Assembly (NCBI GenBank): GCA_905178155.1
Contig: CAJINV010000029.1
Span: 9,911 to 62,108 of the forward strand
Origin: Amoebophrya sp. A120
Taxonomy: Eukaryota; Protista; Dinoflagellata
DNA length: 52,198 bases
Direction: 5' to 3'
The notes beneath the pieces were generated by a model. That model was not told the origin of the DNA and ran no database searches. It saw only the letters and a program-made list of their open reading frames with translations. A program made the position numbers and the translations under genes. This document shows positions 291 through 47,700 of the stretch, in pieces (position 1 is the first letter of the stretch; the number at the start of each line of letters is the position of its first letter).

Positions 291-1729
291 TCAAATACCG
301 ATCTTTTCCTGTGTCGTCGCTGCGGCCACACCACCAGGAGGCACGTCGGCCGTCGTCGGTGGTACCAACAAATTCGGTTGTTCTCGGTCTTGTGAACTAC
401 CAACTGCCGCTGCCGCCACACTTGTTTCGCTTTCCCCGTTCGTGAACAATTCCGGTACTATGTTCTGTTGCAAGTTCAACGTGCTCGTGCTCTGCTCGTG
501 ATTATTCCATGGGACTGGTCCGCTTTGGTGCGCAGGAGTCACAGCCGCTGCATATCAAGAAGAAAAATCCCCCCTCCCCATACCAAAACGAAAATCTGTG
601 ATGCAGATTTGTGGTCATAAATCAGCTTTCTCGTGCTAGAAGGACAGAGAGAGATGCGGAGCGTAATGCTGGCTTGCATGGGAAAGCCTTGCGCCTTCAG
701 CAGGACAGAAAACCAGTGAAAGTGGATAGCAGCATGACAAATTGCCTGCAAACGAGGCCGCAGCTGCCTCTCGTGGCCTTTTAGCACTGCAAGGCGATTT
801 TTGCACTCAAATACAGCATCACAAATTTCGTTTTCGATATGGGGAGGGGGGATTTTTCCTTTTGATACTGCAACGGAATCAGCTGCTCGTCGTGCTGCAT
901 CGGCCGGCGCAGACGTAGCTGTCATCGCCGCCGGGACGAGACTTGTTTCAGCCAGCTGGCCTTGACCAGATGCGGGGGGTCGGCTGCTGGACGAACTAGA
1001 ACTGGAGCTGGTCGTGGGGGCTTCCGGCTGTTTATGCTCGGTGAAATTATTATGACCACCTGCAATGTCAATTTGTTATGCAGGTATATATGCCTATTTG
1101 CCATGACAAATTCCATTTCGTGCCGTCTCAAGACGATCGTCTGCGACGAGTGCATGACAAATTGCCATCTCTCGTCGAGCTGGTACATTTATTTCCACCT
1201 GATACGACCGTCTCAGCGTACTTTGCCCTGCTTGTAGTCCCAGCGTGTCGACAGTTGCGGCATTACCGCCCGAGTGCGGCGCAGTTGTCGTCGCAACATC
1301 ATTGGGAACGTCGGTCCTCGCCACCCGCAGCTGCCGCTCGTCCTCCTTTTGTTTCTTCTCAAAGCACACCATAGCCGCTATGGCGTTCTCAAATGTTGCA
1401 TTCTCAACAGTTACATGATTTGCCATGCAAAACGAGCATCAACGTCCACATGGTGAAGCTACTGCGCATGACAAATTTTGGAAGGGCTAAACAGGATGAG
1501 AGCCTGTGCCGAATTTGTAATGCAAGAGTTGCAAGATCCGGCCTTTCTCTGTTGCCATTCTTGCATCGCAAATTCATGTAAGAACAGTTGAGAACGTAAC
1601 AATTGAGAATCCCATAGCCGCCTGCACGCAGAGCGCGTTCAGCTTCTTTTTCGCCAGCTTTTCGGAGTACTTCTCGGCGAGCCGGTCGAAAAGGTGCTGC
1701 ACATCCGGCGCGCGGATGTTGTTCAACAT
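291..1729 (-). CDS. Gene 1: hypothetical low-complexity protein (~232 aa), split by 3 introner-like elements
   Basis: Removing 1379-1616, 1033-1204 and 553-867 (+5 nt each) gives 699 nt in one frame: MLNNIRAPDVQHLFDRLAEKYSEKLAKKKLNALCVQAAMVCFEKKQ...QEKIGI*. May extend to 34 through a 57-bp mini-intron. True start uncertain. Confidence 0.6.
553..867. mobile_element. Introner-like element, family B
   Basis: TIR TATCAAGAAGAAAAATCCCCCTCCCCATA / TATGGGGAGGGGGGATTTTTCCTTTTGATA; TSD CTGCA perfect; frame restored. Confidence 0.92.
1033..1204. mobile_element. Introner-like element, singleton family I
   Basis: TATG...GATA, degenerate TIR, CATGACAAA boxes; TSD diverged but element+5 restores the frame. 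Confidence 0.75.
1379..1616. mobile_element. Introner-like element, family F
   Basis: TIR TATGGCGTTCTCAA / TTGAGAATCCCATA; TSD GCCGC perfect. Confidence 0.92.
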
Positions 1730-3773
1730 TTTCTCCTCTGGTAGACTTAAACTTAGGGCGTTTCAATCGTATCTTCCGATTTTTGTTCGCTTCTCCTCTT
1801 TTCTATGCTACACAAATTGAACAAAGATTGCTGCCTTGTTGGCCGAGGGGTTTGTGTGATCAGAAGCCTCTGACACAAGCCTAGGTTGAAAGTAAAATGG
1901 TATTGGGAAATAAGGGTAGACCTTGCTACTCGGGAAAAATTGCAGGGTAAAATCCACAATGGAAGTAATAGTGGAGCCTTGGGCCGTGGATGTATCCTTA
2001 CTCTCCTTGGTTTATCATCAAGTTCCTCTCTGCTGATAGGACTAGTTCTGCATGTAAAAAACTTATTTACAGATGGTGCGCAAGAAGACGGTGAAAAACA
2101 GAATAGCTTTCCTCTCAAAAGAAAACTCTCGACCACACCCGGAAAAAAACAAGGAACAAAAACTCGTGATGGCACAACACACAGTAGCGGCACCCTCACC
2201 GTAACTCGCTATAAGAAAAAAACATATGCTGCACTGAAAAGATTTTTTGGGGTACGTCCTGGGGGAAGAAAACGCGGACTCGCTCGTAGCACAACTACGA
2301 GGAGAGGTGTGGGGTACAACAATACGACGTTGGGTACAACAACATTGAACACATTTGAAGAAGTCGAACATCATCTTCGTTCGAGCCGCGAGGTCTGCAT
2401 CAGTAATAAACCCAGGTCTAGTGCTAATCTAATAGGACAAGTTTGCGATTCTCAGACAACAAAATCAGTTTTTTCGGTTTTTGTTCATTTTTTTGCATCG
2501 CCTTGAAGATTTGATGCCCCTGCACAAGAAATCACTTCACTTTCTTGATATTCATCGAATGCCTCATCCTATTTACATGTCATCATGCCCGTCATCTGTA
2601 TTGGAAAGTTCCATATGGTCAATCTTTCAAATCAAAAATCGTCCATGGTTTCACCTTTGTTATAGTCGTCTGTAATCTTTTAGTGGTTGTGGTTGTCGTC
2701 AAGCGGTCAGCATGCTGTTGTCCAGCAAGTGAGAGGTCCGTCGAGTATTATCGTATAAAAATCGGTGCAAAAGTTATTGTACTGAAGTGTGGATTCAATA
2801 TTCAATTTTTCTCTCGACAGCTGCAAAAGCAAGGTGCTGTGGCTTCGTCTCACATGACAACGAGCAAAGTTTTTCTAGAAAGTGATTTCCAACGTCGAAA
2901 ATGCAGGTATAATCTTCATTCCTCTGTACTATCTGTATCCTATGGTATTGTATATAGTGTTAAGACCTCAAGCTCTTGTGCTGGTTGTGCCGAGATTTTG
3001 TTTCATATTGCCTGCTACAAGAGAGCATGGAAAGAAAAAAGTTCCGTTATTATGTGCAAAAAATATCAGCTTGAGTGTAATTCTTCTGCGACAGACACAG
3101 AGGCCGTAAACTTTTGCAAACGTAAAAGTCCTCACAAGGCAGTGCAAAATTGCATGCAACTCTAGAAATACATCAAGTTGAAATATAGTATGCGCTGTTA
3201 CGTAAAAACTATCGCAGTCGCTTCTGCAGCACAAAGAACTAGGGGCACGACCACATCGAAGGAAGATGTGGCAAAGTAGTGCTGTAAATTTTCATTTCAA
3301 CGTTGTAGCAAAACTCCGTTTGGAAAACAAAAGGCTTCATCTTTTATCTCTTTCATGTTAGGTACCAATACTAGTACAGCTGCTTTTCTTGTTAGCGTAT
3401 GATAAAATTTTTTAGGCTTTCAAAAATGAGTTGCCCTGTTGTTCGGCGCAACGTACTGGTACAAGTCGGCCTCACTTTCGTATTTCGCAAAAGCAAATCG
3501 TAAAAAGAAAAATTATGGTTACATCTACAAAAAACTGCCGCAGGTAGTAGCAGCGCGTCAAGCTGTCATGTATAGAGGCTCTGCACGCGGCCTCTTAGGA
3601 AAATTTTCTAGGCATTAAGTGTGCCCTTCCGGTATAGGTAAGAGCTTTCAAGAATTTGACCAACCGTACACGTGCCCGAAAAGCATAAAGTAACGTCCAT
3701 AGTCTTCTAAGCACGGTTCGCCAGCACGGGCTCGAAATTCATAGATTAACGCCCGTAGTGATCGATGTCCTTT

Positions 3774-4041
3774 TATCAAATGTAAAAGAAAAAGTGTCTG
3801 GGTTTGGAAGAGTGCGCCATTTGTCATGCAGCTTTTCCATGACCCATGAAGCCTGGAATGCAGGACCTAGCATGACAGATTCTGCGCGATCTCTCTCATG
3901 CCTATCCTGCATGAGAAACTCCCTCCCGACTTGGTCAAAACGGGAAGACTTTTGGTACTCATGCAACACAGATTTTTGCACGCTTCAGATTTAGCATGAC
4001 AAGTTGCATTCTTCCAGACCCAGACATATTTGCAGTTGATA
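3774..4041. mobile_element. Family A element outside any reconstructed CDS
   Basis: TATCAAATGTAAAA..GTCTGGGTTTGGAA / TTCCAGACCCAGACATATTTGCAGTTGATA; no TSD (CCTTT/TAACT). Confidence 0.85.
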
Positions 4042-4420: not shown

Positions 4421-7400
4421 TTACTTCACCATTGGCGCGGGCTGCTTGCCGCCTGGAGTTGTAGGCGCAGAATATGGCGTTCTCAAACGTTACTAGTACA
4501 CTCTCAACCGTTACTGTTACATGAATTTCACATGCATATGCAAGAGATGAACAGCAACAGAAACAGTTATGTAAAGGGGCAAATCTTCGTTGATCATGCT
4601 GCTTTCGCATCACAGATTTGTTGGCACAGATTTGATTGCTGTTTAGCCCTTCGGAGATTTGTCATGCGAAATAGCTTGACTGTCCGGCGGATTGGGGTAG
4701 TTTTGCATGAGATTTCACGTAACATCAGTGGAACGTAACGCTTGAGAATCTGATACAGCAGGAACAGCTCCTAGTGTCACCTGCCGTCCCGTCACCGAGG
4801 GTTCTTGAGCCTGCGCTGCAGCGGACGACGACGAGATATGAACATGGCCGCTTGATGTTAAACCGCCGTGCTGCAACGTCGTGCTCGAGTCAACAACACC
4901 TTGTTGTTGATGTGGTACCACGGTCGTGCGACGCGTTTCCCTTGCGGTCATGAGGCGCTCACCAACGCGGGCGAAGGAGCTAGCCGAACTTTTGCTATAA
5001 GACGGCCCCTATGCATTGCAAATATGTTTGGGTCTGGAAACTTGTGATGCTAAAATGTGGACGATGGCAACACTTTTGCATGCAGCTCAGCATGACACCT
5101 TCCCAGAATGCTTTCTCATAGGAAGTCCGCATGAGAAACTGCGTTTTTGCATGACAAAAGTGGCTGCGTCCTTTGTTGCTTATGCAATACAGATTTCCCA
5201 GTAATGCAGAGCTAGCATTACAAGTTCCAATTTTCCAGACATTTTTGCAGTTGATAGTCCCGACCCCGAGGCCGCTGCCGTAGTGTTGCTCGAACCGGCA
5301 GACCGCGTACTTATCCAAGAAGAAAACTGTGTAGATGTAAGCCTGCAATGCAAAGTACGCAACACAGATACATCTGTCATGCTGGCCAGCCATGATGAAG
5401 TCCTGTTTTCATATGTTTTTTCTAGTACTAGCTGATGTGCATGACAGGTTTTGTTCTCTGTCATGCAGAGCAAATTTGTCATGCTGTCACTCCAAGACAG
5501 CTACACTCACCCAGTTTTTATCTTGCATAGTACTAGGCGTGTGATCAATGGCCGCGCGGGCGGAAAGTGGCGGGGGTGCCGAGGACAGCGAAGTAGATCC
5601 GGGTAGAGCAGCCCCTTGATGGCCGCTGGTAGAAGAGCCAGCCCCCAGTAGGGGGCCCCGGTGGTGCTGATGCCCCGTTCTGCTCGACGGCGTCACAGCT
5701 TGCGGTAGGGAAACTCCCCCCTGGTGTAGTTGCGCTTGCAGCTGCCCCGGAGCACTGTGGCTAGTCCCGCCCCGAGCTGCCGGCGAAGACGGGGCTCTCG
5801 CCGCGGGAAGAGGAGATGGAAAAATTGATGCTGGCGGTTGATGCGGCACCGCAACTGCTGCAGCGGGAGTTGCGCTAGATTGCTGGCTTTGAAGATGATC
5901 GCCCGTTTGGAGTCGGAGGGAAGATTCGGTTTCCCTGATTCCCCGCCCGCCACTCTCCGTCCTTGCCACTACACCTGCTCGTCCCGTGCCAAAATTATAG
6001 AGCGGATCCGCCGCGACTCTACTCGGAACTTTCGCCGGCGTGTTTATCTTGTAGTCCATCTGCATCGTCTTCAGGAGCTCCTTGTAATTTGACGTGAGAT
6101 GAAGACCCCCAGTTTTGCTATCTGCTTCCAAAGCCCCCGTGCTTGTGGCTGGGCGGTCGGAAACGCTACGGTGCCACAGAGTTCGAGCCATCGCAGCCTC
6201 CAGGGGGTCTTCCTCTTCTTGCTGCAGGAGCTCTGGGTCAACATTTGAAGCAACTTCCCCAGTAGGTGGACGTCCTCGCCCGTCCGCAGGTTGTTGGCGA
6301 CACGAACTTCTCGATCGCATCTGCAAGATTTCATCGGACATCGCGCGTGACCACAGGGGCCGCCCTTGTTCCTCTTCTTGTTCCCATTCGGGGGCAAAAA
6401 GGTCCGGTGACGCAGCTCCTGTAGTTGTCATCAACGTCGGGTCGGAAGAACTCAGCGGGGGAAGTTGTGGATCATGGTGGTCTATGGAGGATTGCAAATA
6501 TCCCTGGATGTCGAAAAACTTGTAATGCTGAATGGTCATGCTTGACTGTGCCTGTAAGTGCAGTGCAGCATGACAAATGTTTCAAACGCTTTCTCATCCG
6601 CAGAACGCATTACGAACTGCGCTTTTGCATGACGAACGTGTCGTGGCGCTCTATTTGCTGCTTATGCAATACAGATTTTTTAGGAATGCGGAACATGCAA
6701 TACAGGCTCAACCTTCCAGACTCAGACATATTTGCACTCGATACGGTGCTGCGCCGCCGTTTGGTTGATCTTGCCAGGAGGACCACCACCAGCATATTGA
6801 AGCGGAGCGCCGCCCGAAGTAGTTTTAGAGGCACTTCTACTGCGGCTCGCCTGCTGCTCCGCACTGGCATTGGTATTGGCAACTACATCTTCTGCACGAC
6901 TAGCGGTCTTGCCGAGATGAACAATTGGGTCCATAACAAGAGCAGGACTTTCATCTTCAATCGGAGCATTCCTGATGCAGACCTGCGCCAGTTGGTCGCA
7001 GAGTCCGGCGATATTATCAACTAGAGAAGAAGGAGCCTCTTCATGATTAGATTGCTGTTCTGGCGCAGGAGGAGGAGAAGTAGGTCCTGCAGCTCCTGTA
7101 CTATCGGATCCTGTAGCACAACAACCTGACGGTGTTTGATCGATCTTATCAAGTGGATCGCCAGCATGCTGCCGGTTATTTTGAGCGCCCGAAGTTCCAG
7201 AGGTACTTCTGCTTTGGCTCGTCTTTTCAGCCTCTTCACGCGGATGTTGCTGTTGCGCAGGAGGAGCTCCTGCACCTGTATTAGATCCTGTACCTGCAGC
7301 TTCAGTATGATTCTTACGGGCGGCCGTTTCTTGTTCATCATCTTTGCCGTGACGACGGGTCGACGACGTTCTTGGCGACGGTTCTTCACAATTACGCAGC

Positions 7401-10400
7401 TCAACATCCTCGACCCCAGACCGGTGTTCTATCGCAAGAAAAAACTGTTTCACTATGAACTTGTGATGCATAGAATAGAACGCAGAACTATTTGTCTTGC
7501 TACACCTGCAAGCTATTGGATTTTTAAGCGCGTTTTCCCTTGGAAAGCGCGCACGGCAAATTTTCTGTGTCATGTGTAGCAAACTTGTGATGCGGATCTT
7601 GCAAAACCATCACAGTGAAACAGTTTTTTCGTGGGATATGTTCTTCATCCACTTTATTCATTTTCGACGGAGCAGCTACAGGTGCCGGCTTTGCGTCCGC
7701 GTGCTGCTCTACTAGTGCTTGCACATCAGCGGAAGAAGTTTTTGTAGTGGTAGTTTTATTGTTCTTCCCACCTGCGGCGCCGCTCGTGGTCGACGTCCAC
7801 TTATCATCTACTATAGGATTGCCTGCTAGATCAAAAACCCGGACGACCTGCTGTCCCGGGTGGACACCGCGTGCTGTGTTCTATCAAATGCAAAAGCATC
7901 GTACTAGTATGAATTGCATGACAAATTTCCTCACCATGAGAAATGGAATTTGTAATGCTGATTGACATAACGAAAAAGATTTGTAATGCATAACTGCAAT
8001 GACTACGAGTACGAGACCTTTGCACTGGATATGTTCCTTGAACACGCAAGGTTCGTCCTGGACGCAAGGCTGTGCAGTATCCTGAGTAAAAACGTCCCCA
8101 CACCAGAGTTGTCATGCAGATTTGCCATGACAGGAACATTTGTGATGCGCAACCCCATGACAGGCATTTTCAATCGTGTTTGGGAACTTGTAATGCTGTA
8201 AACAGGATCAGCAGATCGATTTGTGACGCGGCTTTCCTTGCTAACTTGCACCACCTTACGGACTGAAACTTGTCATGCGTGACTCACAAAACTCCTAGGC
8301 TTGTGTTGCAAAATCCCCATCCTGAGACTGGTGTGGGTACGTTTTATTTTACTCAGGATATGCAGGTTTTTGTCGGTAAGAGGACTAGCGAAGGTTGATT
8401 GCTCTACTGGCCCTCGAGATCCACTGTCCGACCTCGGCTTGCTATGAGAGTGCACAACTAGAAGTACTTACCCCTCCCCATCATTTGTCTATGCAAAATA
8501 CAAAACCAACACTGTGCCTCTTTGCACTGTTTGCATGACAAGTTTTGGCATCTCAATGAATAGCACGACCAACTTCCTGTGCGAATTTCTCATGCAAAAC
8601 CTGCATTCTTGCTGACGCTTGTATTGCTGTTTATGCGATGCAAATGAGGGGGAGGGGGAGTAGTTGTGCACTGTCATACTTGAGCTGGTCCTCGTCGCCG
8701 ATATCTTCCTCGTCCAACATTGACTGTATCAACTGCAAATATGTCTGGGTCTTGTCATGCACGTTTTGCATGAAGCATGATCGGTCTGTGATGCATGCCC
8801 CAGCATCACTGACTCTTTGACCGCTTCTTGATGCCTCTTCCGCATGACAAATGCCCCTACGACCGCGTAGCAAAAGTTACATTCTCTTATTTGCTATTGC
8901 TGCTCATGCAATACAGAGTTTTCCGGAATTCAAATGCAGCATCACAAGTTCTTGCATTCTTCCAGACATCCAGACATATTTGCAGTTAATAGACTGGCCT
9001 GAAGAACGCACTCCGACGTCCCACAACTCTTGCACATCCTGGATGATGGTTACCTCGTTGCGCTATCGTGAGGAAAAATCCCCATTCCCTGTATCGAAAA
9101 GGAGATTTGTGATGCTGGATTTGAGTGCACAAATTTACATGTATTGCTAGAAGGCCAAGAGACGCAGACGCGGCCTCACTTGCAGGCAATTTGTCATGCT
9201 CTTTCCCGCTTCCAGTTGCTTCCTGTCATGCTGAAGACGCAAGGCTGACTCAGGTCAGCCAGCCCTACGGTCTGGATCTCTTTCGTTGTAGCATCACAGC
9301 GGGACTTGTGATCACAAATCATGCTACACAAATCTCCATTTGAGTATGGGGAGGCGAGGTAGTTTTTCATTGTAATATGCGCTCGTAAGAAGGACCTTCA
9401 TGATCGGGCGCGGCCCCCGCCCCGATTCCATTCGATCGGCCTGCATATGCTGTGCAAAAGCACCGCACTCGTAGTACTAATCGCATTCATGCATTGCAAA
9501 TCTTTTTATTCAGGTAAATCCGCATTACAAAATCCGTTTCTAATGCTGAGCAAATTTGTAATGCGATTTCTACTAGTACGATACTTTTGCAAGGCATACT
9601 GCAGCCCGGTCGGCAGTTCCCACGCTCGCGGACGACAGTATCCCGTTGCCACCTCCCGAGGAATCACCTCCAACCACACTCGTGAGCCGCATTCGCAACA
9701 TGGCCAGCAGGTCGTACCGCACGTTTTCCTGTCTCTCCCGGATATTTTCCCTCCGCTCGCGCCGCCGATCTTGCTCTTGCTTGGATCGTATCAAATGCAA
9801 ATATGTCTGGGTCTGGAAACTTGTGATGCTACAATGTGGATGATGGGAAGAGTTCCGAATGCAACCCAGCATGATAACTTTCCAGAACGCTTTTTCATAG
9901 GCAATCCGCATAAAAAAATGCGTTTTGGCATGTACAAAAGAGGCTGCGACTTTTGTTGTTTATGCAATACAGATTTTCTAGGTATGGAAAGATAGCATTA
10001 CAAGTTCCAACCTCCTAGACCCAGACATTTTTGCAATCCATAGATCGCGCCAGTTCGTTCCGCGCGACCTCCTGCACTGTGGTTTCTTGTTTTGTACGTG
10101 GACCAATAAATCTGGTTGCGTCGTCCTATCCTGAGCAAAAACGTCCCCACCCCAGAGTTGTCATGCAAATCTGCATGCCAAAAATGTTTCTCATGCGGAG
10201 CCCCAACATGAGAAGCATTTTCTATGCGTGTTTGGAATTTGTGATGCTATAATCAGCATGATATACTAGATCTAAGATGCTGCTGAACTACCTAAACAGG
10301 ATGACACTACGAGGACAAATTTGTCATGCCAAACGACCAAAGGTGGCTGATTTGTCTAGCAGATTTCCCATCTTGACTCTGGTGTGGGGACGTTTTTGCA

Positions 10401-13400
10401 AATAATACGACCACCGCGGAGGTCATCCCACTCTCTAGTGCTCCCATGATGCACACTATGCGTTGCAAAGCTGTCTGGGTCTGGAAGATCGCAACTTGTC
10501 ATGGTAATTCTGGATACTGCAGAAATCTGTGCTGCATGATTACCAAAAGCTGTCCACTTTTGACCAAGCTGAGAGGGAGCTTCTCATGCAAACGAGGCAT
10601 GATAGAGGTCGGGGAGATGAGTCTGTCATGCTGGGGCATGTATGACAGACCGCACGCACCATAGAAAACCTGCATGACAAGTCTTCCAACCTTCCAGACC
10701 CAGACATTTTTTTTGTATTTGATACACATTCCGTGGTTACAATTGTCGCTTCCATAGACTTATGAACTGCAAAAGCATCGTACTCGTATAAATGCATTAC
10801 AAATTTCCTTAGCATGAGAAATAAAATTTGTAATGCGGGTTCACCTTAAGAAAAAGATTTGTAATGCATGACTGCAATACGAGTACCATACTTTTGCACG
10901 GGATAACACTCCGGAATCCGCGCCGCCATTCGCTCTGCTGCCAGACAAAAAAGACCCGTTATCGTTCTCGTAAACGGTATGGAAGTGTCAGAATCGAAAT
11001 TGATAAAATCGAAAAACTTGTGATGCATAAAATCGATACCAGTTGGATCCTCAGTTTGCAAGCGGCGCATGACAAATTTCGGGAGCACCGAAATCCTGTC
11101 TGTCATGCTGTTTGAGCAAAGAAGACTGCTCCTGTCATGGTACTCTGGCAGCACATTGCATACCCCTAAACAGGCTTACAATCTGTCTCATTTGCCTGCT
11201 CCCCAATACAGGCCTCGAGTGCCCTACATTTTACGCATCACAAATTTTTCGATTTTGTCGATTTCGATCCTGACACATCCATAAACGGCGGTTCGGCTGC
11301 TCGCGTCGGAGTCCGATACTGTCTATCAAATGTAAAAATGTCTGGGTCTGGAAGAATGCAAGATTTGTGATGCAGGTTTTCCATGAGCCATGAGGTCTGG
11401 AATGCGAGACCCAGCATGACAGATTTTTTGAGGTCTCTATCATGCCTTTCCTGCATGAGAAATACCCTCTCAAGAATTTGGTCAAAAGCGGACAGCTTCT
11501 GGTACTCACGCAACACAGATTTTTGCATCATTCAGATTTAGCATGACAAGTTCTGACCTTCCAGACCCAGACATTTTTGCAGTGGATACTGTCATCTCGC
11601 TACTGGGGGTCTTCTTTTTGCGCCCACTGTGGTAGGTATGACAGTACACAACTCCTCCTCGTTCCCCCTTATTTGTATTCTGCATGAACAGCAACTATAC
11701 AGACACCCCCACCAGTGAAGCCTATGCATGACAAGTTAGTGTGCCTAGAGTAGAATAGTACTGTTTGGGCTTTTTCCGGAAAATTCTGTCATGCAAACAG
11801 TACCACGCAGCAGCGCTTGGATTGCAGATTTTGCATAACAAACGAGGGGGACGAGGGGGAGTTGTGCACTCTCATAGTAGGGATCTGGATCCGGCGGAGC
11901 CACAGCCCGGTCCTGTCGCGACACGAAGCTCCCTTTACTGCTCTTTTTACCGTCGCTGCCACCACTTTCCGGAGGCGTTGCGAGGAGACCCTGGTGACGC
12001 CCGCCTGGTCGTCGGGGGTGTTTCTTTTCATTTTCTCCTCCTGGTGTTCGTATGAAGTGCAAAAGTATCGCACTCGTGTAAATGCATATACAAATTTCCT
12101 CAGTATGAGAACTGAAATTTCTAATGCTGATCTACCTCAAGAAAAAGATTTGTAATGCATGATTGCAATACGAGTACGATACTTTTGCACAGCATAGCTC
12201 GCTGCGGCTGCGGCTGCAAGGCGAAGGACCGCGGTCCTTTATCGCGAGGAAAAATCTACTCCCCTCCCCATACCGAAAAGGTAGACTTTCGGAAATTTGT
12301 GATGCTGAGTTGCGGCCATAAATCGCGTCTGTCTTGCAAGAAGGCAACTCCGCAGGCTCAGCCGCATTGTGCAGGCGGTTTGTCATGCAGCTGGGCCTAC
12401 AGCGCGGACGTTTTTCATGCTAAACGCCTAGGCCAAAACCTCTCTACTGACACTTGGCATGGGCCTGCAGTCCTCTCCAGCAAGACAGCTCGGATTTGTG
12501 TACACAAATCCAGCATCAGAAGCTTCGTTTTGGTATGGCGAGGGGGGATTTTTCCTTTTGATATTCTTGACCGCCGGGCACCAGCTCGCGCCACCACCTC
12601 GGCGGGTCGCCTCCTATGCATTGGAAATATCCCTGGATGTCTGGTGGAAACTTGTGATGCAAGGAAGAGAAGAGTGAGCACTCTGTAATGCGCTGCACAG
12701 CATGGTGAGTTATTTTTCCGCGGTTCTGAGGTGCGTACTCCGCATGAGAAACTGCGTTTTTGCATGACAGGCGAGAGGAGCTCTTCGCGGCCACGCAATA
12801 CAGATTTCAGAGTCATACCAGCCTAGCATGGCAAATATAGGAATCTCCCAGACCCAGACATATTTGCATCTGATACCTTCCGAATGAATGCCAGCAAGGT
12901 TGTGGTCGCGCAAAGTGGCGTAGGCATTGTGCTTGGTGAGGACCTCGCTGGTGAGCCAGGGCTGCGCGAACTGGGTACCACTCGCAGCATATCCTGTGCA
13001 AAAGTGTCGTTCTCGTCTAGCAATCATGCATTACAAGTTTGTTTCTTCAGGTGAGTCCGCATTTTACAGATTTCATTTCTCATGCTGAGGAAATTATTTG
13101 TAATGCATTTATACGAGTACGATACTTTTGCACTGCATACAGCACCTCCACCAGACGAGCTTGAAGCTGAGGTGGTAGTTGTGCCACCACGACTATGCAA
13201 GAAAAAAACTGTGTAAGTGTAACTTTGTAGTGCAGAACATGCAACAGAGTTACACCTGTCATGCCAGACAGCCATGAAGTCGTTTTTTCATGTGTGTTTT
13301 CCCTTACAAGCCAGGCATGACAGGTTGTCGCTGTCATGTAGTGCCGATTTGTGATGCTGTCAGCCAAGAAAAGCTACACTAACAGAGTTTTTTTCTTGCG

Positions 13401-32336: not shown

Positions 32337-33152
32337 TGTTGACTACTTAGTCGGCTGTCGAAAGTGTTCCCGCTTTAGTTGAGGATGTGAAGTTCGTGAT
32401 TCGAAAGCGAAGTCCGGAAATTTGTACTTCATAACAGGAAAAAAAACGAAAACTCAGTTGTCAAGAGCTGCATTTTGAAGCTCGTCTTTCTCCGAACACG
32501 AGGTACAAAAGCCGCCAGCAGACGTGAAGTGATGGCTATGGAAATCATGTTCTAAATACCACTTGTGAACGAATTGATTTTAATTCGCATGCTATGTGAA
32601 ACTACGTTTTGAATACGTGTGGTTCATCTGCTCTGTGAATTCTAGAGCCCACAGCTCCGGTCCTACCGACGAGATGATGCAGCTTCGGTAACAGGGAGCA
32701 CTTGAATCTGCACCCGGAAAAAGAAGTGCAAAAATGTAGTAGAAAAAACTTCTTTATGTCGCTTTTCGTTTTGCAAACAGCAGTCGGCTTTTCCATTTTG
32801 CAGACACTAATACCATAGTTTTCACCGCCGAAAACGGACGAATGTTGATATCAATATTGACCAAAACGGTTCTAAAAATGATATAAACAAATTAATTCTG
32901 CAAAATTTTTTGATTTTTTCTTGAAAACATCCAGGCATCAAAGATGTACAAAACGAAGTAGATGAACAGAGACCGGGCCTAACGCCAAGTGTGGTCATAT
33001 ATTTGTTTTGTAGGGCTTCCTGCAAAGTACTCACAGGAGCTAAGAAGCCAAGTTTTAGATATGATTCATTTCCTCCACATGAGAATAGACTAGTAATACC
33101 CGCCGAACGCAATTAAGGTCCCCGCGAGGTGGACGACTACCCTACTAGATTT

Positions 33153-36100: not shown

Positions 36101-36613
36101 TTCTTGAGCGCTTTGTTCCTCGTCCTTTTCACTTGTGCTTTTCTCTGGTGGAAGTACATGCGCAGTTCTGGGAACAAGAGGTCTCGGGTCTGGGCCCGGC
36201 GGTGGAAATTGCGAACAAACTGCAAGAACAGTGGTGCTAGCAACACGACTGCACGGAGGTGGACTAGGGCTGGCAGAGCTAGTACCGCTGCTTGCTGTAC
36301 TTCTAAATTTCGACAAAACACGTATACTTCTTGGAAATGCGTGAGGGCTGCGGCCTGATTCTACTCCCCGTTGTGATTCTTGTAGTACTGCCACCAGCTC
36401 TGACTCATCCACGCTGGCAGCGCGACTGCTTCCTGCCGAAGACGGCGAGGTTGTTGCCAAGAAGCTGCTTTTGCCTGGTGTCGTCCAACTACACGAAAGA
36501 AGAGCTATTGAGAAGATGTAGATCCGCGAGAATGTAGCGGATGTGGACCACGTTGAGGGCGCCGGATAGAACGTAGCCGGAACTACACCAGGGTGCCGAC
36601 GTGAGCTCGCCAT
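33153..36613 (-). CDS. Gene 5: low-complexity protein (~709 aa) with N-terminal hydrophobic segment and C-terminal RTAGPEPPL repeats, 6 introner-like introns
   Basis: 2130 nt in frame after removing six elements (+5). Ends RARWLGA*, matching the DPWLGA* end of gene 6. Confidence 0.8.
33164..33415. mobile_element. Introner-like element, family E (decayed interior)
   Basis: TATCGCACAGAAAAAGCTCTTTCACT / AGTGAAACAGTTTTTTTCTGTGCGATA; no TSD; removal gives the WLGA* terminus. Confidence 0.8.
33472..33701. mobile_element. Family A element with replaced or truncated right end
   Basis: Left A-type TIR; right end ...CAATGCGATA lacks the A TIR; no TSD; frame restored. Confidence 0.8.
33789..33938. mobile_element. 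Introner-like element, family C
   Basis: C-type TIR; TSD GTTGC perfect; empty site in the repeat unit at 34038-34042. Confidence 0.95.
34563..34840. mobile_element. Introner-like element, family A (diverged)
   Basis: Degenerate A TIR; TSD ATGTT/GTGGT; frame restored. Confidence 0.85.
35461..35642. mobile_element. Introner-like element, C-like
   Basis: TATG..TGCAAAAGCGTTCTTGTACAACT / AGTTGTACACAACTATTTTGCATAGGATA; TSD GTGTG/GTGTC. Confidence 0.85.
35709..35917. mobile_element. Introner-like element, family E
   Basis: E-type TIR; same 209-bp length as 7430; TSD CAGAC/CAAAC. Confidence 0.92.
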
Positions 36614-37049
36614 TTCTTTGAGAATGGCCGTCGTGCTGTCACCCCGTATTTGACTGGACGGGAAAGCGAAAGCGTATGGTGCGCGGAAGTTGGGCTAAAA
36701 AACGGAACGCAGGCGAGCCGCGGAAAGCAAAACCATTTACGGCTTCTGTCTGGGCCGGATGATCATTCGCAGTAGTACATGTGCCATAGCAATACTGCGT
36801 CTGAGGAATAGGCCATGTGGTTCAGATGGAGCCTAGAGTAGAAGAACATAAAGAGCACACCAGTATATTCATAAACATATTTCTGGCCCTGGCGGCGGCA
36901 AGACCGCGAAGACGTTGAGATGCGAGAGTTTTGAACGCAGACTTCAGCAGCCTCGCCACCACGCTTTCCATGGGAGATGAGCGGATGTAAATCTAAACCC
37001 ACAACTGCGCCAAGTGCCACATTTAGCCTCTATAATCTGGAGACAACAC

Positions 37050-39740: not shown

Positions 39741-41617
39741 TTTGCAAAAACAAAAACAAAATTAATTATGCATCGTATACTATAGTTACATTTTGGTACT
39801 ATCAAATTCCATCCATCATCACGCACCCAACCATGGATCACCGCTACTTTCCCCCGAAAACCCCAGCCGCGGCGTCTGCGCCGCTTTCGCCATAGGCCGC
39901 GGACTAGCGGTGCGAATGTTCGACGGCGCCAGACGGTTCACAAAGCTCCTCGCCCGGTTTTTCGTAGATGTTGTTGAAACACCAGCGGCAATGTTAATAT
40001 GGTTTAACACTCTGGGGCTACTGCTTGTCGAGGTCGTAGTTTCTTGTGCCGTGATTGGCAGAATTTTTCGTGTGAGCAGACGCTTGCTGTTGCCACACTG
40101 TGGATTGTCTGTTGTTGGAAATGGGTTGTTCGTAGTTGTGTCGCGTGGGTCGATCATGCCACCAGCATCTCTGCCAAGAAGATTTTTAAAACCACCATCC
40201 GTATTGGTTCGTTGTGAAGAAGAAGAACTTGAACTTGGCATAAAAGCCCGACGAGATTGTTCCTCGTGATTGAGATTCGGTTGCTGTTGTTGAAGCGGCG
40301 ACCCTGCAGTGGACGAAGCTGCAGAAGTGGACAAAATTGCAGTAGTACTAGTAGGTCGTGGTTGATTTTTTAGCATTTCCCTTCCGCCAGCCTCACCAAC
40401 GCTTGTTCCTCTCGACAAAATTGCAGTAGTACTATCTAGCACGGGCGGTCGCTCCGCGACCGCCGGAGAGGTATGGAGTAGACAAGGAAACGATGGGCCC
40501 GATTTCCTAGTAGGAAGGTTGCAGTCCTCGCGGGGAAGGGGAGGGGATTCTCCTGGGGGCGAAAACTCTGCAGGCGCAGGGCTTTTGAGTGCGCCGGAGC
40601 CCCCTGGAGGAAGACAAAGGCGTGACAGCGGCCCGCCCCAGGCCCCTGGAGAAGGAGAAGCACCGGGAAACCGAAAGAACACCCGGGGCGAGCCCACCCT
40701 GGGAGGGGACGAGCCTTCCGGGATGTTCCCAATTTGCGAGCACCCCCCCAAGTTGCGAGCCTTACGGGCGGCTGCTCGTCATTCTAGAGCTACGCCCCGC
40801 TGTATTTCTAGTTACGCCCCCAAGGCGGTGGGGCTGCTTTCGACGGAGCCCACAGGGCCGCAGCTGCGGAAAAGCTGCGCGACAAAAAACCTGGCCAGCC
40901 AGACAGGTGCAACCAGCCCAGGGGGACTAGGCGCACTGTGTGTGATGGCCATTCCTTCGGGGCAGCGAGAAAAGGCGCCGCTTTCTTTGCGCAGGGCGGC
41001 GGGGGCATCCACACGAGGAGGGGCCTCCGCCGCGAGGCAAAACGGGGTAGCCCAAACAAAGCGCAAAGCCATCCCGGGCACCGTGGCCGGGCCGGAGCTG
41101 CTAGTTCGCCTGCACCTGCGGGCGCAGCAGCACGCGCCGCGCCACCCTCGGTCAGATAAAGAAGCGCTCGCCCTCCCACGGCTGCACCCCCTTTTCCCGG
41201 GAACGAGCGCCACGTCCCGCGCGACCACACAGGTACTAATTGCTCGGCGCTAGTTTCTCCACAGGGGGCAAGGGAAGCCAGCAGCGCGGGCGAGCTTTGT
41301 GGCGCAAGCCCGGGGCGAACCACCCCGCGCGGCAGTTTTCTTTTTCTTTTTCTACTAGTAAGCTTTCTCCTAGTAAACTCTCTACTAGTACGCTTGCTAG
41401 TAGTTTTTTTGCTTGCTTGTCACGATAAGATTACTAGCAGCGCAGCCTACTAGTAAAATTCTTGGATTTTCCTTACTAGTAAGATTTTACTAGTAGAAAT
41501 CGGGCCATGCGTCAATCGATTTTCTTGCCGTATAGTATATAGGGTATTGTAGGTCGTGGTTGATTTTTTAGCATTTCCCTTCCGCCAGCCTCACCAACGC
41601 TCGTTCCTCTCGCCGTC
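39741..41617 (-). pseudogene. Element-free tandem partial copy of the gene 6 3' end and 3' flank, interrupted by a 1.1-kb GC-rich insertion
   Basis: 39741-40413 and 41549-41617 align with 41618-42821 but lack elements 41794-42049 and 42098-42332 plus one TSD each. Frame is still open to DPWLGA* at 39819. Confidence 0.85.
40435..41548 (-). mobile_element. 1.1-kb GC-rich insertion without TSD, Helitron-like 3' end
   Basis: Splits GTAGTACTA|GTAGGTCG of an 84-bp tandem duplication; perfect hairpin 40444-40464 followed on the minus strand by CGTG-CTAG; TACTAGTA-type repeats at 41350-41495. Confidence 0.6.
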
Positions 41618-41707: not shown

Positions 41708-44700
41708 TCACGCACCCAACCACGGATCACCGCCACTTTCCCCGGAAAAACCCAACCGCGGTGTCTGCGCCGCTTTCGCCATAGGCCGTGGACTATGAAA
41801 TGCAAAAATGTCTGGGTCTGGAAACTTGTGATGCTAAAATGTGCATGATGAAAACACTTCCGAATGCAGTCCGGCATGACAACTTCCCACAATTCTTTCT
41901 CGTAGGCAATCCGCATGAGAAACTGCGTTTTTGCATGACAAAAGAGGCTGCGACTTTTGTTGGTAAATATGCAATACAGATTTTCTAGGTATGGAAAGCT
42001 AGCATTACAAGTTCCAACCTTCCAGACCCAGACATTTTTACAATCCATATGGACTGGCGGTGCGAATGTTCGACGGCCCCAGACGGTTCACAAAGCTTAT
42101 GGGGCTCTCAAACGTTACATTCTCAACTGTTACATGATTTGTCATGCAAAAACACTATCACTATTCACACGACCAAGCCTGCCTTGCATGACAACTTCTC
42201 GACGCGCTACATAGCACTATAATCCGTCCCAAATCTGTAATGCAAAAGGCGCAATCTTCCTCCTGTACTTTTGCCACTCTTGCATTACAAATTCATGTAA
42301 CAGTTGATAATGTAACGCTTGAGAACGCCATAAAGCTTCTCGCCCGGTTTTTCGTAGATGTTGTTGAAACACCACCAGCAATGTTAATATGGTTTAACAC
42401 TCTGGGGCTACTGCTTGTCGAGGTAGTTTCCGGTGTTCTCGTGATTGGCAGAATTCGTGTGAGCAGACGCTTGCTGTTTCCAGGCTGTGGACTGTCTGTT
42501 GTTGGAAATGGGTTGTTAGTCGTTGCGCCACGTGCGTCGATCATGCCACCATGATCTCTGCCAATAATATTTCTGAAACCATCATCCGTATTGGTTCGCT
42601 GTGAAGAAGAACCACTTGAAGAACTTGGCATAAAAGCCCGATTTTGTTCCTCGGAATTGAGATGGTGCAGGTGATTCGGTTGCTGTTGTTGAAGCGGCGA
42701 GCTTGCACTGGACGAAGCTGCAGAAGTGGACGAAATTTTTGCAGTACCAGGTGTAGTTCGTGGCTGATTTTTTGGTATTTCCCTTCCGCCAGCCTCACCA
42801 ACGCTTGTTCCTCTCGCCGTCATAATCGCCAGCGGCTGCAAAACCCGTTTCCCGACCCGCGCCCAGGTGCTAGAAGTAGCCGACCGGGTTGGTGTGTTTT
42901 GCGACGCGGCGCTGTCTTTGCTTGTTCCCTGTCTTGTCGTACTACCAGAGGCCGCGTCGGTCGTGTTAGGAGTGATGTTGCGGACGAGAGCCGTCATTTG
43001 CGCAGGAGTCTTCCAGGGTTGTAACAAGCTACTAGTGGGGGCTGATGTAACCACGGAGCTTCCAATTGCATTACTAGCACCATTTCCTGACGAGCCGGAA
43101 GCTGCACCGTCCGAAGCTGCACCGTTTCCGTTCCTGCAGGACGTGACCGCGGCAAACCCAGAGCCGGCCACGACCGCACCAGTTGAGCAAGATGAGCCTG
43201 TTTGTAGTTGCCTGGTAGTTGAATTTGAAAACTGTATTTCCTTTTCAAACTCCAGCATCAGCGCCACTTCGCGTTCCGCCCGCGACGGCCTCGCGGGATC
43301 GTCCGCCGGCACTTTACGGTCGTGCGTGTCGTCTATCAAATGCAAATACGTCTGGGTCTGGAAGAATGCCAGACTTGTCATGCAGGTTTTCCATGACCCA
43401 TGAGCTCTGGCATGTAGGACATAGCATGACAGATTCTACTGTGAGGGTTCTATCATGCCTATCCTGCATGAGAAAGTGCCTCTCGATTAGGTCCATAGTG
43501 GACAGCTTTTGGTAATCATGCAACACAGGTTTTATTCACGCTTCAGATTTAGCATGACAAGTTGCTTTGTTCCAGACCCAGACATTTTTGCATTGGATAT
43601 CGTCCGTTGCGCCACGAATCCAGCCAAAGGTTTTTGCCAGGTCTTCGTCCGTTTTGCTCAGTGTGCTGTCATATGCATTGCAGATATGTCTGGGTCTGGA
43701 AGGTTGGAACTTGTCATGCTAAATCAGAATCATGCAAAAATCTGTGTTGCATGATTACCAAACGCTGTCCACTTTTGATCAAGATGAGAGGCAGTTTGTC
43801 ATGCAGGATAGGCATGATAGTGATCTCACGGAATCTGTCATGCTAGGCACTCCATTACAGATCATATGGGTCATGAAAAACCTGCATGACAAGTCTAGCA
43901 AAGTTCCAGACCCAGACATTTTTACAGTTGATATGTCAGCGTCTTGACTATCGGAATGAAAAGACGTTGCCGCATGCTGTACTGGTATTGGTAGCTGCAG
44001 TATCGTGTGTTTCAAATTCATCTCATTGGCTGCTGCACCCAAAGTTGTAGCCAAAGGGGGCGCAGGAACGACCTCTGCACCAGCCGCGCAAGGAGGCGTA
44101 GAATCATCGGTGCTACTGCTGGTCGCGAGGCCACGACTGCAACTCGCAAGGTGTCCTTTGACCGACGGTGGAGTTGTGCTCATCTGCTGCTCCAAACCTG
44201 TGTTGTTTTGTTCTTGCGGGGTCGAATTATAAGCTGATTCGTCTTTGCTCGTCGTCGTGGTCACTACACCGAGCTGTTGCACGAGGGTCGTCGTGTTCTG
44301 CACGTTCTTACCCATAGCCGCCTTTTCGACAGGGTGAATTGAGGATGTCTGTGTTGCAGGACCACGTTCACGGGACGACGCCGAAGATGCAGGTTGAAAG
44401 GGCGATGCTGACGTGAAAAACGCAGTGCCACTGGTGCTCGATGATGGGCCACCATAATTTCTCACACTCGCAGTAGAGATCCCACCCGTAGTTCCAGCTG
44501 CAACGGGCATTGCTGAAGACGATGATGGCGAAGAAGACTCCGGAACACGAACCGTTCGCAGATTGTAATTGATTTCCAAAAGTTTGGTTGCTTCCGCTAA
44601 AGCTGCAATTGACTGCTCCTCCTCATTATTTGCGTCATCATCTTCGCCAACATTCGCAAGACCTTTCACCTCCGCTGCACCAGCACGATGCGCAATAACA

Positions 44701-47700
44701 GTACTAGCTTGGTCCGAAAGTTTGCTGCTTTTTCCAGAACCAGTTGAGAATGGTGCTGTGCTTCTTGTCCACGCGCTTTGTATGCCAGTCTCGACTTTGG
44801 TCGACAGCGGTGAAGACAAGTCCTCGCTCGACAGGTTTAGTTGCGAAGAGCTGTTTTGTAAAGATGAAGAATCGCCTTCGCCGGAACAACCTGATAATGC
44901 CAGACAGTCGACGCCGTGAGTAGTTGTAAAATTCCGCCGGCCAACATGCGCGTCCTCAACAATTGCACCTTCCCCGCGACCAACATCCGTATTTTCAGGC
45001 AGCGCTCCAACGATCATTTCGCAATCGGGAACGAAACTGCTTCTCGCAGTACCACCACTGACCGCCGAGGCAGAAGTAGTTTTCGACCTGTTTCTAGTAC
45101 TATCGCCGCTGCTCTTGGAGTCGTGTAGTAGTTCCGTGTCATCGCCGGCTAACACGAAGGTGAAAGCGGAAGTGGTTCATCTCATTGGTTTACTGTAGTT
45201 GTTTTTGATGCCCGAATTAGAAAGAGCGTCACCGTGGTAATCCCCATCGCGGACATCATCTCCTGTCCGAGGCCCCGTAGCGGTGGACAAAACATTATCA
45301 AGAAAACTGTTGTAGCCAGCACTGGCCCCCGTAGCAGTATCCTGTTTTTTCCCTCCTCCGCCCCACGCCTGTTTTCGCCGCTGCGTTCCGGTCTCTACTT
45401 TGGTTGAGCTCGGCGACAACGGAGAGTATGGAAAAAGTGAGAAAAAACGTAGTTCGCATATAGCATTACAGATTCAAAACACGACGGCTGCATCGTGGAA
45501 CCAGAAAGAGAAAACAATTTCAAAAACATCATTGTCATTATGGTACGTGACATGCACATTCTCCTAAACCGCATCAAAGCAAACAGGTTTTTTACCTTCT
45601 TAAACACGAGGAGTCGTCCCTGGAACTATCGCTTGAGGAAGAGGGCGACGACGCCGTGCCAACGGTAAAAACATCATTCCGCCCTGGTTTGCAACCGAAT
45701 AAACCGGCTTGCTCTGGTACAGCCTCCATCGCAAATCCGCTTACTGCAGAAGACTTCGAACCTGCGCGCACTCCAGTTGTATCATGGCCGACCTGCTGTT
45801 GTTGCAGAGATGAAGACGCCTCGATGTAGCTATGGTTTGGTGCGCTGTGTTGCGGAGCAGCCAACACGTTGAGTGAAAACAAAACTTCAAGCTCTCGTGC
45901 ATCTTCTCCCAGCCCCGGAATGGAGTTGCCCAAAAGTAGCTGGCTGGCCGCTTCTGCGCGCTGCGTTTCGGTGGATGAGCTCTCTGTTGCAGTACCTGAA
46001 GACGACGAAGAGGTGGTACCGCTAGAGGAACTCGAACTACCCAAAACACTGGAGCAAGAGCCGCTCGAAGTGTTCATTTTACCATCATGATCATTGTTCA
46101 TCCCAGCAGCGTATCAAGTGCAAAAATGTCTGGGTCTGGAAGAATTCATGTTTGTCATGCTTGTCTGGCATGACTCTTAAATCTGTCATGCACGTTACCC
46201 AAAAGCTCCGTTTTTCTGTGATGCAGAAGCGCAGTTTGTCATGCAGAATAGGCAACACCAAGGAGCTCAGACACTTATCATGCTGAGCCAGCATTTGTAG
46301 CCTCATCATGAGACGCCACCCAGCATCACAAGTGTCCAGACCCAGACATTTTTCCTTTTGATAGAGTGCTTTGGCTTTGGCTTTCCTCCCCCCACGCCGT
46401 CCCGACGCCGGAACCGGGGGCGAGTCGTATCATGCGCGGAGCAGGTTGTCGGAGCAGAGAGGAAACGGCTTTGGTTCGTTGTTGTTCCGCAGCTGGCTGC
46501 AACACCATCGCCGGATTCGTAGTTGATCTGCCGAGCGGCGGAAAAGAAGTAGAAGAAGAGGATCCTTGTTTTTGCAACTGACCAACATGATCATGCGCCG
46601 CTTTGTTACTGCGTGAAAACGCCTCGTCCTCGGAAAGCCAGCGAGGTTCTTGCGAAGACGACGACCCAGAGGTTGCTGCGGGGACGGCTAACAAGCTCGA
46701 ACCCAGCATGACACCGGAGTTGACAGATGTACCTGATATACATTGCAAATAAACCAAAAGTACCTGATAGTTTTGCTTGGAAAAATACAGAATATTTTAC
46801 ATATATGCAAAGTGCTGCAAAAAGGCAAGCAAAAACTCTAGTAAGAAGTGCTGATTTACCGTATATACAAACTAGATTTTGATGTCACGGAGTGTTGCAA
46901 CTACTACGATTCATGCCATGCAACTTGCACAGAGGATACCTTTATCGTGAAGAGATGAACCAACTTCACCAACAGTGGTCACACCTTCGCTTTGCGCCCT
47001 GCTTTTGGCCATCGGTGTATTTTCGGTAGCTTGATTCACCACGACCCCCCGCTCTTGCACAGCACCTCCTCGGATCCATGTCAACACGGGCGCTGGCCTT
47101 TTTGCCAACGACGCACTGCGGAAGGTCGGTGCCCGGGGTTGGTGGGTTGGGGCTCGGGGTTCGTAGATTTTTACTGTCGCTGGGCCAGAGCTCGACGCGG
47201 AAGTTGTTGTTTCAGGTCGTCGGGTTTGGTCTTGATCGCTTTCCTCCACCGTTCTAAAACCAAAGTCCGTTGTTCTCCTCACCTCTGTCCCGGTAGAAAG
47301 TGCCGACGCTGCAGATTTATTTTCAATTCTCCTCATTTGTTCTTCACCCTCGGAAGAAAAATCGGCACGACCGGAACAAGGTCCTAAACTAGCTGGATGC
47401 AGGAGCTCCGCCTCCTCCATCGGCGCGGCGTATAGTGTCGGCGTGACCAGTTGGGGATTAAAAGATGATAATGTCGCAGTAAAATTGGATGTGGGAACAC
47501 GAGTGGGTCTACTTGTTCTAGTTTGTGTTGCGTAAACCAAATTTCCCTGCTGTCGATTGGTAGGCGCCACGCCACCTCCCGAAGATCCCCCGCCGAAGAC
47601 CGCTTGCTGCGAAAATTGGACCTGAGAAAAAATAACCTGACTTTGATTCACATTCAATGACGTGGCTCCTAAAAAGTGATTTTCTCCGGCGCCAACGCCG

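Follow-up and report, generated by a model that had tools for sequence, protein, structure and literature searches.

How does a cell make continuous messages from genes that carry dozens of insertions, when those insertions end in letters that do not mark an ordinary intron? The question is raised by a stretch of 52,198 nt from Amoebophrya sp. A120 (contig CAJINV010000029.1, forward-strand positions 9,911 to 62,108; hereafter the window, numbered from its first letter), in which seven host open reading frames (ORFs) are interrupted by inverted-repeat elements that begin with TAT and end with ATA. These elements are the introners already published for this genome by Farhat et al. (2021; PMC7789003), and how Amoebophrya removes >60 % of its introns without GT–AG ends and without detectable U1 RNA has been an open question since that report. 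What the present analysis adds to published work is a probable register of removal, in which each element leaves the transcript together with one base upstream and four bases downstream, and a spliceosome-like reading of that register, which we hold with considerably less assurance.

Removal was followed in contigs of two runs, X1 and X2, compared over positions 401–20300; the contigs come from one sample with strand not given, and are taken as likely RNA on the mapping tool's guess of the source type. Of the 69 joints in these contigs 15 were listed, five of which remove exactly the element plus 5 nt (elements 553, 1033, 1379, 3774 and 4473, each named here by its first position), as the preliminary description of the window had proposed from its letters. 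Of the remaining listed joints, seven link repeat copies, one is attributed to a diverged paralogue and the last two are alternative joints. At four further elements (6483, 7430, 14216 and 19118) contig pieces stop at the expected boundary and then continue. One of the alternative joints, 433>868, is seen in both X1 and X2 and connects the donor of 553–867 to a site 114 nt farther downstream in the transcript; the other, 4468>4775, is seen in X1 and combines a normal acceptor with a donor 18 nt upstream, which starts C-U-A outside the hairpin, while X2 shows the normal donor. This second joint may reflect alternative splicing or a paralogue. No RNA dataset is on record as containing the stretch 5001–14900, and two raw RNA runs of 2026, X8 and X9, gave 221 and 9 reads, nearly all on element fragments; they do not reach the exons and are uninformative for junctions. 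In X8, which bears the same species label, ∼200 reads carry the 3′ part of the 11502–11588 element family inside another transcript.

We define the register j as the count of upstream flank bases within the intron, such that '1+4' denotes one base upstream and four downstream. Where the direct repeat flanking an element is perfect, the splice site appears variable to any aligner. The contigs allow j=1 only at element 3774, j=0–1 at 1033, j=0–3 at 4473 and j≥1 at 6483. Beyond position 20300 the junctions rest on open frames and on the A120 protein P0002 (709 aa), which spans six elements and is matched at 709/709 residues by j=1 only, the other registers giving one to four mismatches (j=0 at 34563; j=2–4 at 33472 and 33164). 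As P0002 derives from the RNA-guided gene models of the same project, it extends the RNA evidence and is not independent of it. The seven informative junctions (1033, 3774, 4473 and 6483 from contigs; 33164, 33472 and 34563 from P0002) have a single register in common, with no contradiction among them. Moreover, the flanks at 3774, 33164 and 33472 share only 0–1 of five bases and yet keep the 1+4 register, which argues that the element ends, and not the direct repeat, position the cut. As such, a fixed register of one base upstream and four downstream is probable, albeit from few junctions, and the stagger from the TAT and ATA termini proposed in the preliminary description is recovered. The intron then reads N-U-A-U-(C/G)...A-U-A-N-N-N-N, whether or not the direct repeat is intact. 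Within 33164–34070 a short exon is duplicated in tandem; elements 33164 and 33472 have the same upstream flank there, the ends of 33472 are of two kinds and P0002 lacks both elements in the common register.

All seven host ORFs lie on the minus strand (Table 1). Two single-exon queries returned one protein each (P0001 and P0002), both 100 % identical and annotated as Amoebophrya sp. A120; this identity, together with the description by Farhat et al. (2021), makes the system a known one and its elements no new discovery, and it bears out their earlier attribution to Amoebophrya introners. Retention of any single one of the 46 ORF-embedded elements introduces a stop (46/46), and removal of the element plus 5 nt opens the host frames, including that of gene 2, whose 24 junctions yield 1837 codons (the 1838 first given presumably includes the stop). 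We rejected this restoration as proof of the 5 nt length, since removal of the element plus 8 nt also leaves the ORF 2 frame open (1813 codons), removal of the element plus 2 nt breaks it and the test therefore gives the removed length modulo 3 only. The middle part of gene 2 yielded no annotated protein, a protein search with ORF 7 gave only two weak, unrelated matches, and a Pfam search of eight host proteins or exons found no family. At 4866–5610 a diverged paralogue of the gene 2 3′ end is present in X1 and X2 at deeper coverage; it lacks 5014–5553, that is, two elements and the intervening exon.

A scan seeded from confident ends gave 45 elements and a relaxed scan added 26906–27111; these 46 elements measure 145–324 bp, lie within 553–46938 and are flanked by a 5 bp direct repeat that is perfect in 24, matches at four of five bases in 14 and at three or fewer in eight. 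Element 28419–29013 was added as the 47th TAT...ATA element because it pairs better than any other candidate with an otherwise partnerless end and because two ORFs are fused in frame when it is removed. With this long element and one doubtful site (45427–45594) included, we reproduce the earlier count of 48 elements and its repeat tally of 24, 14 and 10. Only a repeat length of five fits, being perfect in 24 of 45 elements versus 0–1 at lengths 3, 4 and 6–10, and the strict pattern TAT[CG]..[CG]ATA with a perfect 5 bp repeat, of the kind recommended at the outset for a genome scan, matches 22 times in the window versus a mean of 0.64 (maximum 4) in 200 shuffles. The TAT(C/G) ends given in the preliminary description mostly hold, but TATT occurs three times, TACG once and TATA at 46737. 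Behind TAT each end has loose positions 4–7 (91 of 184 positions mismatched between both ends) and a TGCAAAA-like core. Internally, T[GC]T[ACG]ATGC is found in both orientations, with 152 of its 161 occurrences in the window inside elements, and 42 of the 46 elements carry two to six copies of (AAY)TTGT[CGA]ATGC, the first mostly 33–46 nt from each end; this motif is a candidate binding site for a transposase or a splicing helper. Seven families hold 34 of the 46 elements (nearest-neighbour identity 68–89 %), and four of these families occur in both orientations relative to the host gene. Predicted folding of the 46 elements has a median z of −7.4, the weak folders being 33472 (z −2.0), 34563 (z −1.6) and 1033 (z −2.8). 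The long element 28419–29013 contains a nested insert of ∼400 bp, in which short tandem repeats accompany a duplicated GC-rich unit, and a 600 nt removal in the 1+4 register restores the frame. Lone element-like ends without a clear partner at 16351, 13639 and 45427 are possibly decayed introners.

Within the window, element-free copies exist for three of the sites and each bears a single 5-mer, so the 5 bp repeat is a true target duplication. With terminal inverted repeats (TIRs), a fixed-length target duplication, no coding capacity and dispersed copies, the elements are non-autonomous TIR DNA transposons that resemble miniature inverted-repeat transposable elements (MITEs). The same families, at 76–96 % identity, are found in a second public assembly (loci L001–L158; 481 kb, ∼1/5 of that collection), where calling without use of the TAT letters gave 329 elements, 264 with TAT..ATA and 222 with perfect 5 bp repeats; family orientation relative to transcription is skewed there by 37 to 14 (∼2.6 to 1, p 0.002), and the window leans the same way. 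None of 127 ORFs near these elements had a transposase match in Pfam, seven ORF groups were ordinary host families, and the viral contigs searched for elements gave no match. TDD-4/5 of the Ginger2/Tdd group likewise make 5 bp duplications and have long TIRs (PMC2836005), and Gozashti et al. (2025; PMC12130899) report integrase-like ORFs with TIRs in one A120 family. Assignment to Ginger was rejected, as Ginger ends read TGTNR and A120 elements TAT[CG]; according to Gozashti et al. (2025), too, the A120 element has neither Ginger termini nor homology to Ginger. Four TAT..ATA elements of the second assembly (L031:632-1465, L062:3862-4492, L060:571-1051 and L033:4314-4770; 457–834 bp, 834 bp being the greatest length found, with perfect 5 bp repeats) are possibly nested or composite introners.

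What machinery could produce a 1+4 register? We lean, with moderate confidence, towards a modified U1-less, U2-type spliceosome in preference to a dedicated nuclease-ligase pathway. The offset of the cut gives N-U-A-U, like a spliceosomal donor minus its G, which suggests such a spliceosome. In 117 stranded elements (47 from the window and 70 of 284 from the second assembly, the others having been dropped for want of strand; the set was pre-selected for TAT-like ends), U+2 and A+3 are present in 117/117, with one TGT donor among variants. Donor positions +2, +3 and +4 are those with which U6 is in contact: its A45 bonds U+2 (PMC9984181), whilst A+3 is touched by G44 and U+4 pairs with the middle adenosine of ACAGA (PMC9803359). 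According to Table S4 of Farhat et al. (2021), nine of nine predominant classes are NT–NN in A120 and nine of nine TT–NN in strain A25; as the inverted repeat begins TTA-R-R in A25 and TAT in A120, U+2 and A+3 appear, from that text and table rather than the logos, to be kept while the hairpin offset differs. The same source reports U2, U4, U5, U6 and 83 of 89 spliceosomal proteins in A120, with U1 not detected there or in A25, and states that 15 % of A120 GT–AG introns share the repeat organization; a relative with GT–AG introns retains U1 (PMC12005148). Furthermore, the two window elements with GT–AG in the 1+4 register (12615 and 46737) need no other register, the upstream donor of 4468>4775 also reads C-U-A (one contig), and the MITE-derived non-GT/AG introns of Fritillaria are spliced by the U2 spliceosome (PMC11282704, PMC13326754). 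The minor spliceosome was rejected, AT–AC ends occurring in only 3 of 46 elements and minor small nuclear RNAs being reported absent.

In this reading, a DDE transposase acting in trans would insert the element in either orientation and duplicate 5 bp, with the TAT tip, the variable positions 4–7, the TGCAAAA core and the two to six internal TTGT[CGA]ATGC repeats as its likely cleavage and binding sites. The element plus 5 nt then leaves as N-UAU...AUA-NNNN, a length and register shown at few junctions, which returns the mRNA to its pre-insertion length at any target. The long hairpin may hold both ends close and take the place of U1 and U2AF; once it is unwound, the U6 ACAGAGA box would read U+2, A+3 and U+4, leaving G+1 and the terminal AG unchecked. 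An adenosine near the 3′ end (A-5, A-7 or A-12) is the putative branch point, and distance from ATA, rather than AG, would define the acceptor. As both element ends are alike, either orientation supplies the splicing signals.

A number of observations count against a spliceosome. G+1 (40/117, p 0.31) and terminal AG (10/117, p 0.86) are at background, decayed repeats show no drift towards either, and +5 is C in 81 and G in 32 of the 117, opposite to canonical U6 pairing; where the two ends are discordant, C-first exceeds G-first by 31 to 16 (p 0.04). The constancy of U+2, A+3 and U+4 needs no splicing cause, since these letters are the transposon tip. Window tips have 1/138 mismatches versus 15/138 at positions 11–13, but in the TAT-blind second assembly the tips are conserved in 256, 257 and 254 of 262 cases versus 253, 258 and 251, and extra purifying selection on the tips was therefore rejected. 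Variation among ORF-embedded copies touches all three ATA positions (six clear cases), so that no single invariant branch adenosine is evident, and a predicted donor pairing probability of ∼0.75 would sequester the donor in the hairpin. Of nine clearly oriented terminal variants none alters +2, which is not significant and carries no weight here, and some of eight others of unclear strand would alter it. The contigs, besides being RNA by the tool's guess, have a depth of 23–28 at 3774 and 4473 versus 4–10 in the gene body, and these two may derive from a paralogue. Fritillaria keeps some end bias, unlike the A120 elements (PMC11282704, PMC13326754), and the A at -2 carried by eight of the nine top A120 classes in Table S4 (PMC7789003) is not mirrored in the window, where it is not enriched (14/46); mirror-register or strand mis-calls are a possible source of that excess.

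The clearest competitor is a dedicated non-spliceosomal pathway, of the kind that the preliminary description had proposed. An endonuclease guided by RNA structure would make its cuts one base 5′ and four bases 3′ of the closed hairpin, and the exons would then be sealed by an RNA ligase; cutting and ligation are known from tRNA and IRE1-type splicing, and a similar route has been proposed for the nonconventional introns of euglenids. We consider this account possible but doubtful, and equally tentative is its corollary that a second nuclear pathway measures 1+4 bases from the transposon hairpin and silences insertions at any target and in any orientation, in tens of thousands of introns. It would accommodate 30 different end classes among 46 elements, with terminal letters free except at +2, the lack of detectable selection among the 117 stranded elements for targets creating G+1 or AG, the strong hairpins, the use of both orientations and the undetected U1 of A25 and A120 (PMC7789003), and the hairpin introns of euglenids leave the transcript as circles, with no lariats formed (PMC11282704). 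Nevertheless, the weak or mismatched-end elements 33472, 34563 and 1033 keep the same register, single changes in terminal base pairs occur in ORF-embedded copies, A25 and A120 seem to use different offsets and to keep U+2, and a donor 18 nt outside the hairpin still reads N-U-A (one contig). No candidate enzyme was found, although no genome-wide search for one was made. Spliceosomal dinucleotides are ignored in the sense first claimed insofar as G+1 and AG are neither required nor enriched: GT–AG is present in 3/117 elements, and in 2/47 in the window in the 1+4 register, as by chance, so these are not canonical U2 introns with GT(GC)–AG ends, and just three window elements offer it at all (12615 and 46737, and 10127 in the mirror 4+1 register). 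U+2, which is half of GU, is kept all the same, and with U+2, A+3 and U+4 at donor positions a modified spliceosome explains the data at least as well. The observation behind the preliminary description is thus confirmed and its interpretation partly supported.

The register itself might float within the duplicated 5-mer, as Farhat et al. (2021) state, with the 1+4 agreement owed to the small number of junctions and to a common annotation pipeline. Only one contig joint singles out register 1 and two more narrow the choice, P0002 is an RNA-based gene model of the same project rather than peptide data, the sites are described as variable in the Fig. 3 legend of Farhat et al. (2021), whose Fig. 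S23 gives 1–5 nt, and A at -2 in eight of nine top classes would be consistent with some mirror-register (4+1) calls. Set against the agreement of all seven informative junctions on exactly one register, and given that perfect repeats alone make the site look variable to aligners, floating seems improbable. We give still less credence to excision at the DNA level, or to element-free alleles or paralogues behind the contigs, with no RNA splicing at all. The guessed source type of X1 and X2 and the diverged gene 2 paralogue lacking 5014–5553 in the same runs would suit it. Contig depth, however, is near zero between genes (0.06–1.2 and 0.3 in two intergenic bins) and mostly ≥4 in genic bins, the listed pieces, of up to 1980 nt, contain 0 deviating letters, the sequence remaining at the 3774 joint is a hybrid of both flanks, and 66,565 A120 introns were validated by RNA-seq against the genome (Farhat et al., 2021; PMC7789003).

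Farhat et al. (2021) describe A120 introners as having an inverted repeat in which TAT is followed by seven loose bases and no fewer than three A, direct repeats of 3–5 nt and 29,850 copies. The present elements share with them the genome, the TAT-start repeat, a length of ∼240 nt, non-GT–AG ends and hairpins, with a 5 bp repeat in their Fig. S19; here too we find the TAT, loose and A-rich parts of the repeat, a direct repeat, repeated families and removal from likely-RNA contigs. The elements, their termini and their 5 bp repeats are therefore not novel. That report finds variable sites without a clear splice signature and doubts general mobilization by a transposase, whereas we find one 1+4 register at all informative junctions, constant U+2, A+3 and U+4, and an exact 5 bp duplication shown by empty sites; the internal repeated motif was not met in the parts of its text compared. 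In 19 of the 58 rows of Dataset sd07 of Gozashti et al. (2025; PMC12130899), A120 families are likewise TIR DNA elements (∼150, 210, 255, 280 and 320 bp) and their ends are mostly non-canonical, but the automated calls differ in having 2–5 bp duplications, three splice-site mechanisms, no superfamily and no common register. In the portions compared, Gozashti et al. (2022; PMC9860276) name Amoebophrya in the reference list only, a review (PMC11453091) restates the 2021 description, the preprint listing of Roy et al. (2020) does not mention Amoebophrya, and nothing on these introns was found in PMC12621601. We found no published fixed register or N-UAU donor in the comparison, outside which lie the logos of Farhat Fig. 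3 and S19–S25, and Roy et al. (2023), either of which may show a constant T at +2. Introns of Fritillaria borealis are also transposon-derived, with TIRs, target duplications and non-GT/AG ends, the U2-type splicing being a Fritillaria result; they differ in preferring AG–AC or AG–AT ends, with U1 conserved and U2AF duplicated, whereas in A120 the terminal bases and 3′ dinucleotide are free and U1 is undetected (PMC11282704, PMC13326754). Euglenid nonconventional introns similarly have pairing terminal inverted repeats, duplication-like repeats and non-canonical junctions, but show a Y|R junction, CAG/CTG at +4..+6/-8..-6 and released circles, and A120 has no such end consensus (PMC11282704).

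A fixed register names the exact 5′ base expected in a lariat or circle junction, makes it possible to re-annotate ∼30,000 A120 introners unambiguously, and leads to the prediction that U6 keeps its contacts with +2..+4 and that the contact of G+1 with G-1 and the recognition of AG are lost. If a spliceosome is responsible, this would be the most relaxed 3′ splice-site rule among the papers compared; if not, a new splicing chemistry.

Table 1. Features of the window, all on the minus strand. Repeat, matching bases in the 5 bp direct repeat; Ends, terminal letter pairs of the intron in the 1+4 register.
Feature	Positions	Strand	Repeat	Ends	Remarks
Host ORF 1	294..1762	-			243 codons once 3 elements are removed
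Introner	553..867	-	5/5	GT-CA	Contig joint 547>868, 320 nt
Introner	1033..1204	-	1/5	GT-CA	Contig joint 1027>1205, 177 nt; register 0 or 1 only
Introner	1379..1616	-	5/5	CT-GG	Contig joint 1368>1612, 243 nt
Introner	3774..4041	-	1/5	AT-AG	Putative 3′ untranslated region of gene 2; joint 3769>4043, 273 nt; register 1 only
Host ORF 2	4424..15785	-			1837 codons, 24 elements/junctions; first 486 aa = A120 protein P0001
Introner	4473..4755	-	4/5	GT-CT	Joint 4467>4756, 288 nt; second joint 4468>4775
Introner	5010..5256	-	4/5	CT-GG
Introner	5312..5529	-	5/5	CT-TA
Introner	6483..6743	-	3/5	GT-CC	Contig piece begins at 6745, one base beyond the end
Introner	7430..7638	-	5/5	AT-AC	Contig pieces stop at 7424, then continue
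Introner	7882..8031	-	5/5	AT-AC
Introner	8078..8360	-	5/5	AT-GC
Introner	8443..8678	-	4/5	GT-AA
Introner	8727..8991	-	5/5	CT-GT
Introner	9064..9377	-	5/5	AT-GC
Introner	9446..9598	-	5/5	GT-CA
Introner	9789..10042	-	5/5	CT-AT
Introner	10127..10407	-	4/5	GT-AC	GT-AG in mirror register only
Introner	10457..10724	-	4/5	GT-GT
Introner	10761..10905	-	4/5	TT-TC
Introner	10978..11283	-	5/5	TT-GT
Introner	11324..11588	-	5/5	GT-CA
Introner	11637..11876	-	5/5	CT-TA
Introner	12051..12196	-	4/5	CT-AA
Introner	12240..12563	-	4/5	AT-GG
Introner	12615..12875	-	4/5	GT-AG
Introner	12990..13139	-	5/5	GT-CT
Introner	13194..13403	-	5/5	TT-CG
Introner	14216..14477	-	5/5	TT-AC	Terminal inverted repeat 30/30; missing from P0001, which fits the element+5 model
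Host ORF 3	18108..22365	-			1181 codons, 3 elements
Introner	19118..19270	-	5/5	GT-GG	Contig piece stops at 19112, then continues
Introner	19701..19953	-	5/5	GT-CA
Introner	21167..21460	-	4/5	TT-GG	5′ end TAC, not TAT
Host ORF 4	25679..32342	-			1805 codons, 4 elements
Introner	26906..27111	-	4/5	AT-CA	Relaxed scan
Long introner, 595 bp	28419..29013	-	1/5	CT-AA	Removing 28415-29014 joins two ORFs into 1805 codons; frame evidence
Introner	30571..30719	-	5/5	GT-TC
Introner	31213..31491	-	4/5	AT-CG
Host ORF 5	33156..36694	-			736 codons stop to stop, 6 elements; = A120 protein P0002
Introner	33164..33415	-	0/5	CT-AA	Unrelated flanks, tandem-duplicated exon; P0002 rules out registers 2-4
Introner, mismatched ends	33472..33701	-	1/5	AT-AA	P0002 rules out registers 2-5
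Introner	33789..33938	-	5/5	CT-AA	Empty site copy ∼34040 with one 5-mer
Introner	34563..34840	-	3/5	CT-CA	P0002 rules out registers 0, 4, 5
Introner	35461..35642	-	4/5	CT-CA
Introner	35709..35917	-	4/5	GT-CT
Element-free paralogous copy of the 41794 and 42098 sites	39880..39965	-			One 5-mer each
Host ORF 6	41711..45176	-			809 codons, 4 elements
Introner	41794..42049	-	5/5	AT-CC	Empty paralogous site ∼39900
Introner	42098..42332	-	5/5	TT-CT	Empty paralogous site ∼39945
Introner	43334..43599	-	5/5	AT-CG
Introner	43672..43933	-	5/5	AT-AC
Doubtful: decayed element or ordinary intron	45427..45594	-			GTAAAA donor; ATA lies four bases ahead of a potential acceptor; outside the 47
Host ORF 7	45595..48920	-			954 codons, 2 elements
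Introner	46112..46363	-	3/5	CT-CT
Old introner, inverted repeat mostly decayed	46737..46938	-	3/5	GT-AG

Additional features were noted around the host genes. The stretches 39740–40420 and 41540–42820 form a partial gene duplication of 86–89 % identity, the first copy of which is without both elements of the second. GC-rich islands (64–70 %) with long ORFs on both strands lie upstream of genes at 22600–24300, 37000–38400, 40500–41400 and 49300–50800 and are possibly repeats or promoters. Lastly, in the second assembly an ORF at L011:690-4790 (minus strand) combines DNA-repair metallo-beta-lactamase and DNA ligase domains, an arrangement that we take to be ligase VI-like.

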